The position numbers and the translations under genes were made by a program. DNA of 64,000 nt from a virus. Lineage: Duplodnaviria > Caudoviricetes. The stretch lies in IMG/VR virus record IMGVR_UViG_3300032226_000551, positions 32,001 through 96,000 of that record, one strand, 5' to 3'. The notes beneath the pieces are model-generated. The model did not search any database, had not been told where the DNA came from, and saw nothing but the letters and a program-made list of their open reading frames with translations. Shown one piece after another: positions 9,432 through 18,964 of this stretch. The first letter of the stretch is position 1; each line of letters begins with the position of its first letter.

Positions 9432-9872
9432 TTATATAATTACTTTATTTTTAAAATTATCCAACTCTTGTTTAGGTGCATTTCCGATTCTTACATTTAT
9501 TATACCGTTGTAAAAATCATTTCTTAAAAGAACATCATTTTCAATTTGTTCTTTTATTTCATAATAAGCCAATGCCCACTTTGAACCACATGTTCTTATA
9601 ATTTCAAATTTAAAATTTTCTTTTCCATACTTTTTAATATCATCATTCAATTCATTAGATGAACTAGTATATGTTTTCCAATCTGATTCTTTAAAACATA
9701 TACGTTTTCTGGTTTTACCTTTCAGTGGTTGTCTTTTAATTTTTGAAATACATTGTTTCTTACCTATATATTTTTTATTTGTTAAATTGTTTGTTATCAA
9801 ATATAGAAATCCAAAGGTTTCTTCATTTATATTAACATTTTCTCGTAAAATCCAATGCCCTATATCATTCAT
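9432..9872 (-). CDS. GIY-YIG nuclease, T4 endonuclease II (DenA)-like
   Basis: FGFLYLITN...KYIGKK, ESDWKTYTSSS, GKENFKFEI, FYNGII; single-domain size. Confidence 0.75.
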   Translation of the reverse strand: MNDIGHWILRENVNINEETFGFLYLITNNLTNKKYIGKKQCISKIKRQPLKGKTRKRICFKESDWKTYTSSSNELNDDIKKYGKENFKFEIIRTCGSKWALAYYEIKEQIENDVLLRNDFYNGIINVRIGNAPKQELDNFKNKVII

Positions 9873-10099
9873 TTATTTTTATTTTTCTTATTTTTCTTAG
9901 TTAAAAGTTCAGGAAATTTTCTTTTTATAACTTTTTTACCTAACAATTTAGGAGTTCTCATGTCTTTAGTAGCATAATTATCATTATTTTTAATATCAGA
10001 TGGTGGATTATATAAAGGTTCTAATGATTGACCCAATACACCGCTAACTGTATTATTTTCTAATATTTTAATTATAGTTTGTTGAAATTTATTAAACAT
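9869..10099 (-). CDS. Small basic hypothetical protein, putative internal head protein
   Basis: 76 aa; leader MFNKFQQTIIKILEN, basic tail. Confidence 0.6.
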   Translation of the reverse strand: MFNKFQQTIIKILENNTVSGVLGQSLEPLYNPPSDIKNNDNYATKDMRTPKLLGKKVIKRKFPELLTKKNKKNKNK

Positions 10100-10122
10100 A
10101 ATATATAATTTAATTAATACTT

Positions 10123-10521
10123 ATGGATTTTTTTGAAAAATATAGATTAGAAATAAACGAAGATGTTAAAATCGATCAATTAAATTTATTGGAGCGTGAA
10201 ATGCAGCATCCAGCCATACGTCACAAATGGGTTTCTAGGTTAATTCAACATAAAAAAAACAAAACTGAATTAGAAAGAAAGAAAAAAACTTTAAAACAAG
10301 AAGTATTAAAAAATATAACAGAAAAAGGAATTCCAACCGGAATTCCTAAAACTGCTATAGACAATAAAGTAGAATCATCAGAAGTGATTCAAAAAATAAA
10401 TCAAGAAATAGAAGATATTACGTTGTTAATTGATTATTTAGAAAGAGTGGAAAAGGTATTTTCGTCTATGAGTTATGATTTTGGGTCTATTAACAATACT
10501 ATTAAAATGGAAATGACATGA
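10123..10521 (+). CDS. uvsY: Recombination mediator UvsY
   Basis: DVKIDQLNL, RHKW, helical, YLERVEK; upstream of uvsW. Confidence 0.8.
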   Translation: MDFFEKYRLEINEDVKIDQLNLLEREMQHPAIRHKWVSRLIQHKKNKTELERKKKTLKQEVLKNITEKGIPTGIPKTAIDNKVESSEVIQKINQEIEDITLLIDYLERVEKVFSSMSYDFGSINNTIKMEMT

Positions 10522-10537
10522 TTTTTTTATTAAAAAA

Positions 10538-10545
10538 TATAAATA
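10538..10545 (+). promoter_or_regulatory. T4-type late promoter
   Basis: Exact TATAAATA. Confidence 0.7.
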
Positions 10546-10549
10546 TAAA

Positions 10550-10625
10550 GAATAACAAGAGTAAGAATATTTTGGCTGAAAACAAAATATTCGACTGGAA
10601 TAATACAGTTTGTCCTCTTGTATTC
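10550..10625 (+). ncRNA. Putative structured RNA leader (three-way junction) of HNH endonuclease
   Basis: P1 GAATAACAAGAG/CTCTTGTATTC, P2 GAATATTTTG/CAAAATATTC, P3 GACTG/CAGTT. Confidence 0.55.
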
Positions 10626-10634
10626 GGAATAATT

Positions 10635-11276
10635 ATGAAAAATTTAAAAGAAAACAATCAAATTTTATCTTTGGATGAAATAAAAAAACAGAAAAAGAAA
10701 GAATATTTTCAAAAAAACAAAAAAATAATAAACGAAAAGAAAAAACAATATCGTATTAAAAATAGAGATTTACATTTACAGCAATGTAAAAAATATAGAG
10801 AAAAAAACAAAGAACGTTTAAAAGAATATCATAAAAATTATAGAAAAATACATGGTGTATCTATGTATTTGAGAGAACAAAAAAATAAAAAAGAAAACTC
10901 AGATAGAGTTAAAAAATATTATAAAAAATATGTAAAAAAAAGAATTTTAAACGATGTAAATTTTAAAATTTCTTTAACCTTGAGAATATCTATAAACAAG
11001 GCATTACATAATAAAAAAATAATAAAGTCAAAAAAAACATTAGATTTATTGGGATGTTCTTTACAGGTTTTTAAAAAACATATAGAAACACAGTTTAAAG
11101 ACGGTATGTCTTGGGATAATCATGGTAAATTTGGTTGGCACATAGATCATATTAAACCAGTATCTTCATTTAATCTTATAAATGAAGATGAACAAAAAAA
11201 ATGTTTTAATTATAAAAATATGCAATCTTTATGGTGGAACGAAAACCTATCTAAAGGAAACAAAAATATATGGTAA
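10635..11276 (+). mobile_element. Free-standing HNH homing endonuclease
   Basis: K/R/Y-rich N-terminal repeats, LLGCS, MSWDNHG, WHIDHIKP, NMQSLWWNENLSKG; inserted between uvsY and uvsW. Confidence 0.85.
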
Positions 11277-12691
11277 AAATAGAATATTCTGGTAAATCTA
11301 AACAACAATTACAATTGAATTGTAATACTATTGTTTTGAACAGAATAAGAGAATATTTTTCCGCTCCAAATCCTGCTTTTAGAAGAAATTCAAGATTCTC
11401 ACAGCCTAGAATCTATGCCATCACACCATCAGGTAAATTTGAGTCTGGTTTATTGAATAATATCATATTATATTTTGATGTTAATCAAATTAAGTTTGAA
11501 ATCAACGATGATGTGTTAAAAGATCACAAAAACGGTTTCTCCTCCCCCAAATTAAAGAAATTCGATTTGGTTTACAGAGATCATCAAGAAAAATCTATAA
11601 TCAAATCACTAGAATCTGGAAAAGGTGTTGTAATAATTCCAACAGCAGGTGGTAAAACATTAATAATGGCTGGTTTGATAGAATCATTAAGAGAAAATCT
11701 TAATGATAATGATGCTTTAACATTGGTTATGGTTCCCACTATTCAATTGGTAGAGCAAACTTGTTCTGATTTCATATCATATGGAATGAACAAAGTAACA
11801 AAATGGTCCGGTAATAACAAACCAGATCCAGATGCAACTACAATAGTGGCAGGTACTCAAATATTGATGTCTGATAATACAGATTTGTCTATTTTAGATG
11901 ATGTCAAAATACTAATGATAGATGAATGTCATGGATTAAAAAAGGACAACGAAATAAATAAAATTTTAAAATTTATAAAAACCAATTTTAAATATGGTTT
12001 TACCGGAACGATGCCATCTACAAAGATTGATGAATGGAATATCATCGGAAAACTTGGTCCAATAGTATATCAAGAAAAAACAGAAGATTTAAGAAATAAA
12101 AAGTATATATCAAATTTTAAAATAGTTATCTTGAATGTTATTCATAAAAATATACCTACATTTTCTTTAAATTTTAGTAAACCCGCAGAAGCATATCAAA
12201 GTGAAATGGACTTTCTTCTACAATCAGAAAGAAGAAATGAAATTATTTGTAAATTAGCGGATAAATTAACTAATAATACGATTATAATGGTTGATAGAAT
12301 AGATCATGGAATCAATATTATTGATATTTTAAGTAAAATAACAAAAAAACAATTCTATTTCATTAGAGGGTCTACCGAAATAGAGGAAAGAGAACAAATA
12401 AGATCATTGATGGACGTAAAAAATGATGTTATAGTTGTAGCTATATCTAAAATTTTTAGTACTGGTATAAATATACCCAATTTACACAATATAATTTTTG
12501 CATCTGCTGGAAAAGCCAAAATCAAAATAATGCAATCAATAGGTAGAGCATTGAGATTACATCCAACTAAAACCATGGCAAATATATTCGATATTTCGGA
12601 TAATACCAAATATGGAAAAAAGCATGTAAAAGAAAGAAAGAACCTTTACGATTCGGAGAAATTTAATTATGAAGAAAAAACTATACAATGA
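11270..12691 (+). CDS. uvsW: DNA/RNA-DNA helicase UvsW
   Basis: PTAGGKT, IDECH, GFTGT, STGINIPNLHN, QSIGRALR. Confidence 0.95.
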   Translation: MVKIEYSGKSKQQLQLNCNTIVLNRIREYFSAPNPAFRRNSRFSQPRIYAITPSGKFESGLLNNIILYFDVNQIKFEINDDVLKDHKNGFSSPKLKKFDLVYRDHQEKSIIKSLESGKGVVIIPTAGGKTLIMAGLIESLRENLNDNDALTLVMVPTIQLVEQTCSDFISYGMNKVTKWSGNNKPDPDATTIVAGTQILMSDNTDLSILDDVKILMIDECHGLKKDNEINKILKFIKTNFKYGFTGTMPSTKIDEWNIIGKLGPIVYQEKTEDLRNKKYISNFKIVILNVIHKNIPTFSLNFSKPAEAYQSEMDFLLQSERRNEIICKLADKLTNNTIIMVDRIDHGINIIDILSKITKKQFYFIRGSTEIEEREQIRSLMDVKNDVIVVAISKIFSTGINIPNLHNIIFASAGKAKIKIMQSIGRALRLHPTKTMANIFDISDNTKYGKKHVKERKNLYDSEKFNYEEKTIQ

Positions 12692-15882: not shown

Positions 15883-17336
15883 GTGTTGCAATTATAACAT
15901 ATAATAGACCCGACTATTATAAAAGGGTATTAGAATCGATACCTAGAAATATGATAGACTTCTTGGTTGTTGTGAATGACGGTTACGACATTTATACAAA
16001 AGATAACGATGCGGAAATTGTAATTCAAACTAACAAGCAAATGGGTGTTGCTGTTTCAAAGAACTATGCAATCAAAGTGTTGGTGGAGAAATTTAATTGC
16101 GAGCATATCTTCTTAATAGAAGACGATATCATAATAAAAAGACCTGATGTGTTTGAAGCATATATAAAAGCTGCAAATTCAACAGGGATTCATCATTTGT
16201 GTTATGAAAAGGTTGCAGGAAACGAAAAGTCCTTGAAATATACATTAGAACAACCGGATGGTGTTAAATTGGGCTTTTATCACAATCCTCAAGGTGCTTT
16301 TATGTATGTAAATGCGAATATTCTTAAAAAAATAGGATATTTTGATGAAAATTATGTAAATGCGTTTGAACATATAGATTTTGCTTATTCTTTGATACAA
16401 AAAAACGTAGCTCCCCCATTTTGGTATTTTCCTGATCTGCTAAACAGTGAAGATTATATAACAGATATAGAAGGAAGTAATCAAAATTCATCAATAACCA
16501 ATAAAGAGGGATATAATCATAATTGGCAAAGATCCGCTCAATATTTTATAAAAAAATGGGGGAAATTTACAAACGAAATTATAGATGAAGGTATAGATAA
16601 TTTAAAAAACAATATAATTTTCTTACAAACAAATTATAGCAGGAAGAAAAATGTCAATAAGAATCAAAAATTGACCATTGTTGTTCCATATAGAGATAGA
16701 AAGGTAGCATTGGATATATTAATACCGAATTTGATAGGTTATGTTGGAAAACAAGTGGAAAATTATGAAATTATCGTTGTAGAACAAGATGATAACAACC
16801 CTTTTAATAAAGGAAAATTGAACAATATAGGATTTAAACTTAAATCGGAAGATTCTACGTATGTATGTTTTCATGACGTAGACTTAATTCCTGAATTTTC
16901 TGATTATAGTTATCCAGAAAGACCATCACATTTAAGTAGTCATTGTAGCCAGTTTGCATACATTAATATACCAGACAAAATAATGGGGGGTGTAATAACG
17001 TTTAAAAATGAACATTACGAACAAGTAAACGGTTTTAGTAATGAATATGAAGGATGGGGAAAAGAAGACGATGATTTATATTTAAGATGCGAAAGAGATA
17101 ATATAATACCATATAAACATCCATTTGGTAGATATTTTAGCGTTCCGCACAAGTTGAGACTGTCGGACGATAATGAAAAGGAAATGCATAAAATAAATGG
17201 TAAAAGATATACAGAATTTTCAGAAGGAAAAATTGATATAAAAAATGATGGAATAAATACAATATCGAATTATAAAATAAATGAGGTGATTAATATAAAT
17301 CCATTTACAAAACATTATAAAATTAAATATGCATAA
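15858..17336 (+). CDS. GT2 fused to GT7 (beta-1,4-galactosyltransferase-like) domain
   Basis: N-domain ITYNR/HIFLIEDD; C-domain VPYRDR, FNKGKLNNIG, FHDVD, NGFSNEYEGWGKEDDD. Confidence 0.85.
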   Translation: MEKISSGIGVAIITYNRPDYYKRVLESIPRNMIDFLVVVNDGYDIYTKDNDAEIVIQTNKQMGVAVSKNYAIKVLVEKFNCEHIFLIEDDIIIKRPDVFEAYIKAANSTGIHHLCYEKVAGNEKSLKYTLEQPDGVKLGFYHNPQGAFMYVNANILKKIGYFDENYVNAFEHIDFAYSLIQKNVAPPFWYFPDLLNSEDYITDIEGSNQNSSITNKEGYNHNWQRSAQYFIKKWGKFTNEIIDEGIDNLKNNIIFLQTNYSRKKNVNKNQKLTIVVPYRDRKVALDILIPNLIGYVGKQVENYEIIVVEQDDNNPFNKGKLNNIGFKLKSEDSTYVCFHDVDLIPEFSDYSYPERPSHLSSHCSQFAYINIPDKIMGGVITFKNEHYEQVNGFSNEYEGWGKEDDDLYLRCERDNIIPYKHPFGRYFSVPHKLRLSDDNEKEMHKINGKRYTEFSEGKIDIKNDGINTISNYKINEVININPFTKHYKIKYA

Positions 17337-17413
17337 AAAATACAATTTCACTATAGATTATTCGATTAAAGATGTTAATTTTGATAAATGAATAATGTTT
17401 TTTTAAAAGATAT

Positions 17414-18964
17414 ATGACAACTAAAATTTTAATTAAATTTCCAACCAGAGAAAGACCTGAAAAATTCTTTCAAGTATTGAACCTATATTATCAAAAATCA
17501 AAAGATATCAATAATATAGAATTTTTAATATCATGTGACTCGGATGATTCTACCATGAATAATCCAGTAGTAATTAAAAAACTGGAAAATGCTAAAAAAC
17601 ACATCAATTTAAATTATTATTTTGGAAATAGTAAAAGTAAAGTTGAGGCTATCAATTCTGATATTGAAAAAATTAAAAATTGGGACATACTATTATTAGC
17701 TTCCGACGACATGATACCAGTTTGTGATGAATATGATCAAATTATAAGAGATGATATGCTCACATATTATAAAAATGGCGATGGAGTTCTTTGGTATAAT
17801 GATGGTAATAGAAATGACCTTATTACGCTGTGTATTTTTGATAAAAAATATTATGAAAAATTTAATTATATATATAATCCGGAATATACTAGCCTGTGGT
17901 GTGATAATGAATTTACCGATGTTTGTTTATTTTTAAAAAAATGTACAAAAATAAATAAAACTATAATAGAACATGCTCATCCCGCTTATCAAAAAGCAAA
18001 TTTTGATAAATTATATGTTAAAAATGAATCTTTTTTTAAAAAAGACGAAGATATTTATAATAAAAGAAAAATTAAAAATTTTGATTTGTGCATAGATATA
18101 TGCACAGTCGCAGATTCAAAATATTTTCTTCAGGGATTAACATTATTTGAATCTATAAAACAAAAATCATCAATATCTTTCAAGTTTCATTTTTTGTGTA
18201 TAAATGAAGAAGATTACTTAAAACATAAAGACAAATATGAAAATATTATATTTTATAATGCTAAAGATTTTTTAGATAAAAGTAAATTATTATATAATCA
18301 TTACATAAATGATTATAGATATTTTTGTTGGTCATTAGCTTCATTTTTTTCATATTTTTTATTGAAATATGAAAATAAAAATAGTGTAATTTATATAGAT
18401 AGTGATATATGTTTTTATAAAGACATTAAAATTTTATATGAAAAAATAAAAAATAAAGATTGTGCTATATTTAGACATAGACAATTTTCTTTAAATGAAA
18501 ATAGAATGGATGGATTGTTTAATGTTGGTGTTGTTTATTTCAACAACACACCAAACGGCGTTAATGTACTCGGTTGGTGGGCAGATGCTGTTTTAAATAA
18601 AAAATACCCGCATTTAGCTACATGCGGGGATCAGAAATATCTGGAAGCATTTCCTCAAATAGTAGGAGAAGATAATATTTTTATTGATGGTGATATAGGT
18701 CACGGAGCACCGTGGATGTGGCAATTATATGATTTATCAAAAATTAATGATGGTTACATAACTTGGAATGGCGAAAAACAAGAATATTATTTTAGTCATT
18801 TTTCTCAATTTAGTTATGATATAGAAAATAATAAATTTAAACATAGTACATTACACGAACCATATACTAATAATAATCAAATTTTTACTAATCCAGTTTT
18901 AGATCAGCATTATAAAGAATATTTTAACATCATTAAACAAACTAAAAATAAATACAATTTATGA
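17414..18964 (+). CDS. Two-domain glycosyltransferase (GT2-like + GT8/GT77-like)
   Basis: KFPTRER, LLASDDMIP, SLWCDNE; second domain YIDSDI, FNVGVVYF, GDQKYL, FSHFS. Confidence 0.75.
   Translation: MTTKILIKFPTRERPEKFFQVLNLYYQKSKDINNIEFLISCDSDDSTMNNPVVIKKLENAKKHINLNYYFGNSKSKVEAINSDIEKIKNWDILLLASDDMIPVCDEYDQIIRDDMLTYYKNGDGVLWYNDGNRNDLITLCIFDKKYYEKFNYIYNPEYTSLWCDNEFTDVCLFLKKCTKINKTIIEHAHPAYQKANFDKLYVKNESFFKKDEDIYNKRKIKNFDLCIDICTVADSKYFLQGLTLFESIKQKSSISFKFHFLCINEEDYLKHKDKYENIIFYNAKDFLDKSKLLYNHYINDYRYFCWSLASFFSYFLLKYENKNSVIYIDSDICFYKDIKILYEKIKNKDCAIFRHRQFSLNENRMDGLFNVGVVYFNNTPNGVNVLGWWADAVLNKKYPHLATCGDQKYLEAFPQIVGEDNIFIDGDIGHGAPWMWQLYDLSKINDGYITWNGEKQEYYFSHFSQFSYDIENNKFKHSTLHEPYTNNNQIFTNPVLDQHYKEYFNIIKQTKNKYNL

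Follow-up and report, generated by a model that had tools for sequence, protein, structure and literature searches.

Between uvsY and the gene for an HNH endonuclease, an uncultured T4-like phage carries 117 nt that we tentatively read, with a probability of roughly 0.45, as a segment with two uses, by which a free-standing HNH homing-endonuclease cassette would control its expression in the style of phage T4. Three separately unlikely features come together in these 117 nt, namely a late-promoter box, a fold with a z-score of -5 and an open in-frame bridge into the endonuclease gene. Depending on where the RNA starts, the segment would be either a translated bridge or a structured leader.

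Genome context and start-codon environment

The stretch of 64,000 nt analysed here (the window, to which all coordinates refer) belongs to a 114-kb IMG/VR record that has 29% G+C and represents an uncultured T4-like phage. The record spans window coordinates -32000 to 82347, and its closest DNA matches are Flavobacterium phages. On the + strand, the genes around the element are uvsY, an ORF ending at 11276, uvsW and the gene for late sigma factor gp55. The genome is compact, with a median intergenic gap of 8 nt and gaps of at least 100 nt in just 7 of 115 cases, and ATGA coupling, along with gaps of +1, is its most frequent same-strand junction. The initial description of the element as a rare long leader agrees with these figures. 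One further gap, at 17329-17417, is spanned in the sequence by two mini-ORFs (20 and 9 codons) that are ATGA-chained to the next gene.

Across the whole record, a Shine-Dalgarno signal is absent upstream of 116 starts, where GGA, AGG and GAG occur at background frequency. G is depleted (4-10% at -11 to -1), A accounts for 42-60% over most of this region and T for 59% at -1. As judged from base composition, these start contexts and the missing Shine-Dalgarno signal point to a host with Shine-Dalgarno-independent initiation. The GGA next to helix P1 of the fold described below is no evidence of a ribosome binding site, because the genome shows no Shine-Dalgarno use. For a genome of this kind, the contrast that had been drawn with simple hairpins occluding ribosome binding sites needs care.

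Within 45 nt upstream of starts, three heptamers are enriched in the record: TAAGTAT (23-fold, 12 genes), GTAAATA (17-fold) and ATAAATA (10-fold). The first of them may be a -10-like element of another promoter class.

The cassette and its uvsY allele swept across diverged backbones

In about 75 related IMG/VR loci, whose UvsW proteins are 58-99% identical, uvsY (10123..10521 in the window, + strand; Pfam UvsY, E 5e-8) directly adjoins the uvsW helicase gene (11270..12691, + strand). In these cassette-less relatives uvsW starts 0-5 nt from the uvsY stop, in several of them with an ATGA overlap. Five records, i.e. the window and four other contigs, carry a 748-nt insert between the two genes. 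The block 10123-11276, comprising uvsY, the 117 nt and the HNH gene, is 96-100% identical in four contigs, whereas its flanks reach just 64-88%. The tract of identity begins at about 10117-10128 and ends at 11281 (contig L005) or 11443 (L004). UvsY itself is 98.5-100% identical among four cassette-bearing contigs as compared to about 43-64% at the amino acid level with cassette-less relatives, and in L087 a UvsW that is 99% identical is found next to a UvsY of 52% identity, with the cassette absent. Thus, the claim that the structured segment travels with a mobile gene is strongly supported.

Both presence/absence polymorphism and co-conversion of the flank, the marks of a free-standing homing endonuclease cassette, are found at this locus. 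In terms of sequence comparison, the pattern is characteristic of a recent homing event accompanied by co-conversion, uvsY being the co-inherited, linked allele. As uvsY and the cassette move as one 1.16-kb unit and UvsY of every cassette-less relative reaches no more than 43-64% identity, uvsY or the DNA next to it may contain the homing target. The sole difference in 181 nt among the near-identical copies sits in the loop of helix P2 (L005); since the whole block swept recently, however, these copies are uninformative on selection.

Two other features of the region should be mentioned. Within uvsW, a patch of 400 nt (11471-11870) is 64% identical to L003/L004 while uvsW on both sides of it is 91-93% identical, which indicates a mosaic exchange inside the gene. 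On the minus strand, 250 nt from uvsY, lies a gene for a SegE-like GIY-YIG endonuclease (9432-9872; Pfam E 5e-32). This gene lacks a leader and is joined to the one upstream of it by ATGA coupling; at 83-96% identity among the contigs it falls outside the sweep.

The inserted gene codes for an HNH nuclease

From its family-typical start, the inserted ORF (10635..11276, + strand) encodes 213 aa, and its stop overlaps the uvsW start. The protein matches PHROG 1035, annotated as "endonuclease VII" (E 8e-6), while searches of Pfam (including Endonuclease_7) and of PDB sequences were blank. Among 80 homologues, residues W207, D210, H211, N234 and N243 are invariant and H208 is near-invariant. AlphaFold2 (AF2) models the HNH body at a pLDDT of 94-98 and places strands at 207-211 and 235-239, followed by a helix at 240-246, with pLDDT above 90. 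Foldseek matches in the PDB are weak (E 0.7 or worse), and nearly all of them are HNH nucleases. By sequence and model, the product is an HNH (beta-beta-alpha-metal) nuclease with the His/Asn motif in a predicted beta-beta-alpha core. Distant homologues begin at the column of M40 (MNNTKENN, MMVNKEQ etc.), and none of them has a related extension.

The segment folds into a three-way junction

Downstream of the box TATAAATA at 10538-10545, the sequence-only reading had drawn a three-way junction, with an ATG 9 nt past its closing helix. Box and ATG (10635-10637) are present in the sequence as described, so that the end coordinate was right, and RNAfold, applied to 10546-10640, returns precisely this junction on the + strand (10550..10625). 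P1 pairs 10550-54 and 10556-61 with 10615-25 (11 bp, A10555 bulged), P2 consists of 10 perfect bp between 10565-74 and 10583-92 enclosing an 8-nt loop, and P3 comprises 5 bp including one G.U pair between 10593-97 and 10606-10. The strands joining the helices are UAA (J1/2), 0 nt (J2/3) and UUGU (J3/1). The junction is both the minimum free energy and the centroid structure at -24.3 kcal/mol (z -5.0), none of 200 dinucleotide shuffles folds as well, and P1 to P3 persist in every transcript context tried. Because nearly all pairs in the helices are of the Watson-Crick type, the minus strand reaches a fold of almost the same stability (-20.7 kcal/mol).

In a scan of both strands of the 114-kb record with 90-nt windows, the junction takes rank 48 of 15,236 windows, or rank 18 when loci are counted, and many equally or more structured loci of the genome sit within ORFs. 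Hence, the fold is real yet not unique, and a strong local fold alone does not imply that the region is non-coding.

Two known types of structure were considered for the junction and ruled out. A terminator would be followed by a T-run, and there is none after P2 and no terminator-like site on the + strand; for a hammerhead-like RNA, the junction strands UAA, 0 nt and UUGU differ from the conserved core. The sole terminator-like site between 9800 and 11500 is a perfect palindrome on the minus strand within uvsY (10326-10347; AGGAATTCC..GGAATTCCT), which is followed by a T-run on that strand and ranks 9th among the loci of the genome by degree of structure. Judged by its orientation, it would act on antisense transcripts across uvsY.

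An open frame of 39 codons crosses the junction

The 117 nt at 10518..10634 (+ strand) can be regarded as a leader of 113 nt following the uvsY stop, and a non-coding leader is what had been proposed. However, the segment is an open frame of 39 codons that is continuous with the HNH ORF and whose ATG overlaps the uvsY stop (ATGA). The frame stays open in only 2.1% of dinucleotide shuffles (P 0.021), and the gene callers of several sources give 252 aa for the HNH ORF. Among 5.8 billion proteins there is a single diverged lineage (78% identical), which consists of P0002 (ENA) and its cluster mate P0121 (Logan). These proteins are likewise called as 252 aa, and their extension is 80% identical to that of the window, with one extra in-frame codon. 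Given this frame and its preservation, the proposal of a non-coding leader lacks support in its original form. Conservation of the 39-aa extension at the protein level, one half of an outcome that the sequence-only reading had named as counting against itself, is seen inasmuch as P0002 and P0121 keep the frame and 80% of the amino acids.

Other properties of the extension are less typical of coding sequence. Codon usage of the 39 codons falls at the 5th percentile of the genome's coding segments and resembles that of stop-free non-coding windows. A protein search with residues 1-40 returned only P0001 and P0002, the extension occurring in no other protein. AF2 of the 252-aa form assigns a pLDDT below 50 to residues 1-25, where the alignment is shallow; because only four sequences cover the extension, this result is uninformative. 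In sum, an open frame with a credible start is kept in diverged relatives, and coding-like codon usage combined with homology or a confident fold is absent, there being no homologue outside the lineage.

Promoter-like sites and predicted masking of the start codon

The box TATAAATA at 10538..10545 (+ strand) is of the T4 late-promoter type. From the modal spacing of 6 nt between box and ATG at other genes and from knowledge of T4, its transcription start is predicted at about 10551-10552. In the window, the complete octamer does not exceed expectation (11 occurrences versus 19.4 +/- 4.4 expected), and it is the core ATAAATA that shows the 10-fold enrichment upstream of starts mentioned above. 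The core is usually located 3-15 nt from the ATG, with the mode at 6 nt, a spacing that fits near-leaderless late mRNAs. Since ATAAATA is normally this close to the start codon, a box 89 nt from the ATG at 10635 is exceptional.

Just ahead of uvsY, a sigma-70-type promoter-like site is present at 10082..10109 (+ strand; TTGAAA-16-TATAAT, 11 of 12 consensus positions), which by its sequence is the likely source of a polycistronic uvsY-HNH-uvsW RNA. No terminator-like site was found on the + strand between this site and the HNH gene. Therefore, read-through RNA that extends into the endonuclease gene is plausible.

RNAs that start upstream of the box are predicted to form an additional weak A-U helix, putative P0, in which 10538..10546 (+ strand) pairs with 10629-10637 including the AUG. 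The partners in this helix are TATAA from the box and the UUAUG that includes the start codon, which together would make an A-U extension stacked beneath P1. The predicted probability that AUG 10635 is unpaired amounts to 0.07-0.13 on box-containing RNAs versus 0.72 on RNAs with 5' ends at or beyond 10546. However, this masking is not significant, as 8% of shuffled 5' flanks achieve the same (p 0.08) and the AUG is even less accessible in 13% of the genome's genes.

Searches for related RNAs and preservation of the helices

Rfam covariance models run over 9800-11400 with E-values up to 10 yielded two chance-level matches, both outside the element, and ARAGORN found nothing at the element. A covariance model of the junction, built from this single lineage, recovered only the junction itself from 75 homologue loci plus the window, and the same was true of the complete 114-kb record. 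In IMG/VR, patterns representing exact P2 and the back-translated peptide DWNNTVCPLVF hit only the four near-identical contigs. Two scans of JGI metagenomes for diverged copies retrieved only the parent contig of one of the near-identical contigs, and a scan of GTDB genomes for such copies retrieved none.

Upstream of 43 distant homologues, 7 regions fold with z-scores of -3 or lower, but their shapes are unrelated and share no motif. This argues that structured 5' regions are a habit of the family and not a shared motif. Three of these upstream regions illustrate the variety. In L009 (about 2655-2730) a hairpin buries the ATG of the HNH homologue; in L023 (about 2705-2845) a long-range helix over the AUG closes two inner hairpins, forming a multi-branched domain; and in L012 (about 2836-2925; identical in L019) the 3' arm of a multi-branched fold extends into an ATAAATA box at a distance of 10-16 nt from the ATG. 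Structural conservation upstream of homologues, as an RNA motif belonging to the endonuclease element would lead one to expect, is thus not found. Of the idea of an undescribed RNA motif it holds true that no described family matches; that the junction is a new motif is not established, with no copy upstream of the 75 loci.

The diverged lineage offers another view of the fold. Nine replacements could be placed from the protein differences in P0002/P0121, assuming minimal nucleotide changes, together with the one change seen in L005. Of these nine, three precede P1, three are in the loop of P2, one comes just after P1 and two fall in the 3' arm of P2. The latter two are A-to-G changes opposite U that convert the pairs to G.U, so that none of the nine breaks a pair (p 0.013-0.024). 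These helix-sparing replacements, in a comparison that covers mainly amino acid differences, lend modest support to a maintained RNA fold of the + strand.

Discussion

In this low-GC T4-like phage, which makes no use of Shine-Dalgarno sequences, the cassette is one that spread recently with its own uvsY allele across diverged phage backbones. If our preferred reading is correct, the 117 nt would play two roles. In a polycistronic RNA starting ahead of uvsY, the segment would be an open bridge of 39 codons: ribosomes that terminate at the uvsY stop may reinitiate at AUG 10518, which overlaps it, and continue into the HNH frame, and the overlap between the HNH stop and the uvsW start would let the relay continue to uvsW. 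As the bridge is open into HNH and the HNH stop overlaps the uvsW start, the ancestral coupling of uvsY to uvsW would remain unbroken. On this long RNA the fold might act as a brake, with TATAA of the box pairing with the internal AUG 10635. If the box is active as a promoter, RNA starting near 10551 would carry the segment as an 84-nt leader whose 5' end is locked in P1. AUG 10635 would then be free, and the family-typical protein of 213 aa could be made late in infection. Thus, either start codon might be used depending on the transcript, and the fold could influence yield or timing of the endonuclease.

Several observations speak against such a dual use. The masking of AUG 10635 is weak, consists of A-U pairs only and lacks significance, and TATAAATA as a complete octamer shows no enrichment. 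Ribosomes translating from 10518 would unfold the junction and cancel any masking. A recent exchange of the 5' part, instead of constraint, could explain why 80% of the extension is conserved in P0002, because similarity is higher still over the first 74 residues of the HNH body. Finally, a comparable degree of structure is reached at eighteen loci of the genome, and many of these are within ORFs.

The simplest alternative is that the phage makes a 252-aa endonuclease from the ATGA-coupled AUG 10518, with a lineage-specific extension, and that fold and TATAAATA are incidental. An open frame (p 0.021) that is kept with an in-frame indel and at 80% identity in P0002/P0121, the 252-aa calls of several gene callers and the great compactness of the genome would all be accounted for, as would a strong fold, given those inside other ORFs, and an octamer that is not enriched. 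Nonetheless we regard it as rather unlikely: the codon usage ranks at the 5th percentile, distant homologues start at the M40 column without a related extension, residues 1-25 are modelled with a pLDDT below 50 (on a shallow alignment), all nine replacements avoid breaking helices, and box, fold and open frame, each separately unlikely, would coincide in 117 nt by accident. The segment could also be a functionless leftover, in part the 5' end of an older uvsW allele, that is carried along by the cassette. ATG 10518 indeed occupies exactly the position at which uvsW starts in relatives with an ATGA junction, and the first ~19 residues (MIFLLK..KNNK..I) resemble the N-termini of UvsW proteins such as MIFLDLKNN in L159, with a score against a UvsW N-terminus profile that beats 97-99% of shuffles (p 0.01-0.03); the recent sweep of the block, moreover, means that identity does not show selection. 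However, at 3.5-5.1 bits this resemblance is weak, aligning the nucleotides with 76 junctions gives no better score than shuffled sequence does, and a relic would not be expected to fold with a z-score of -5 or to keep its helices through nine replacements, so that we consider a hitchhiking remnant unlikely.

Stability and branching of a fold that belongs to no Rfam family and travels with the gene might instead speak for a new functional RNA, be it a binding site for the endonuclease (autoregulation) or for another protein, a processing site or a small self-cleaving RNA. The replacements spare the helices, and the two A-to-G changes opposite U are tolerated only in RNA of the + strand. Against this, no relatives turn up in the 75 homologue loci, the phage's own genome, IMG/VR, JGI metagenome contigs or GTDB genomes, the junction strands UAA, 0 nt and UUGU do not look like those of a conserved ribozyme, and the open frame argues that ribosomes cross the element; overall, a new RNA of this kind appears improbable. 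There is a similarly small chance that the mobile element maintains the junction as an RNA module in its own right beside the overlapping frame, for instance as the endonuclease's own binding site for translational autoregulation or as a processing element. Least of all do we expect function at the level of DNA, with the perfect 10-bp inverted repeat of P2 as an operator or recognition site, for instance of the endonuclease itself. For such an element one may cite the minus strand, which folds nearly as well (-20.7 versus -24.3 kcal/mol), and the precedent of I-TevI, which binds an operator over its late promoter (PMC2988022). P2 also contains GAATATTTTGG, which resembles GAATATTCTGG at uvsW codons 5-8, but a match of 10 out of 11 positions is expected by chance in AT-rich DNA (about 0.3 by our own estimate) and we judged it to be fortuitous. 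Furthermore, the repeat does not overlap the TATAAATA box, and A-to-G in the 3' arm of P2 creates an A.C mismatch in a DNA palindrome and a G.U pair in RNA.

Should the dual-use reading hold, a selfish endonuclease gene would have entered a translationally coupled operon of a phage whose host does not rely on Shine-Dalgarno sequences, while keeping the ribosome relay open through itself, and it would carry its own late box and a fold governing its output. This would extend the T4 paradigm, established with hairpins masking Shine-Dalgarno sequences in phages of E. coli, to a different translation regime. The sweep of the 1.16-kb unit of uvsY and cassette across backbones diverged by 12-36% is a clear case, among uncultured phages from freshwater, of homing accompanied by co-conversion in nature. 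If, on the other hand, the junction were a self-contained RNA module, it would be a new kind of RNA associated with homing endonucleases, in phages of hosts lacking Shine-Dalgarno use. As an RNA discovery the element is modest: found in one lineage and without relatives, it looks like a lineage-specific variant of known endonuclease control and not like a new RNA class.

Comparison with known systems

Structured RNA beside an HNH gene is also known from HEARO, i.e. the omega RNA of IscB, and from other HNH-linked Rfam families. The present element gives no match to them at E-values up to 10 in 9800-11400, and its size and architecture are unrelated. A further likeness is offered by seg43(25) of Aeromonas phage 25, in which a very stable hairpin of unresolved function lies immediately upstream of the start region and does not sequester it (PMC2988022). 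In both cases, the stable structure stops immediately ahead of the translation start region and leaves it uncovered; seg43(25), however, belongs to the GIY-YIG family and has a simple hairpin, and a sequence relation is not expected.

Among the closest known parallels in terms of regulation are the endonuclease genes I-TevI, I-TevII, I-TevIII, segB and mobE of Aeh1, which combine a late promoter with structures masking the start site (Edgell, Gibb and Belfort 2010, PMC2988022). Unlike the masking hairpins of T-even phages, the structure described here is a three-way junction, the predicted +1 precedes the whole of its core, which late RNA would retain, and the AUG would be masked only by the weak A-U extension with the box, which is not statistically supported. 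In addition, there is no Shine-Dalgarno sequence to sequester, and the segment is at the same time an open in-frame extension. What it has in common with the T-even genes is a position within a putative polycistronic unit of a T4-like phage, a box of the T4 late type just upstream, a stable fold between box and start codon, and a start codon for which pairing is predicted on long RNAs and exposure on those initiated at the box.

For gene 49 of T4 (endonuclease VII), nested products from long and late transcripts are reported (Barth et al. 1988, cited in PMC2988022). The PHROG matched by our HNH ORF bears the label endonuclease VII, yet Pfam Endonuclease_7 gives no match, and orthology with gene 49 is not implied. 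The resemblance would rather be one of design: two in-frame starts with a late promoter between them, both of which may be used in the present phage, and an RNA structure that would choose the start for each transcript.
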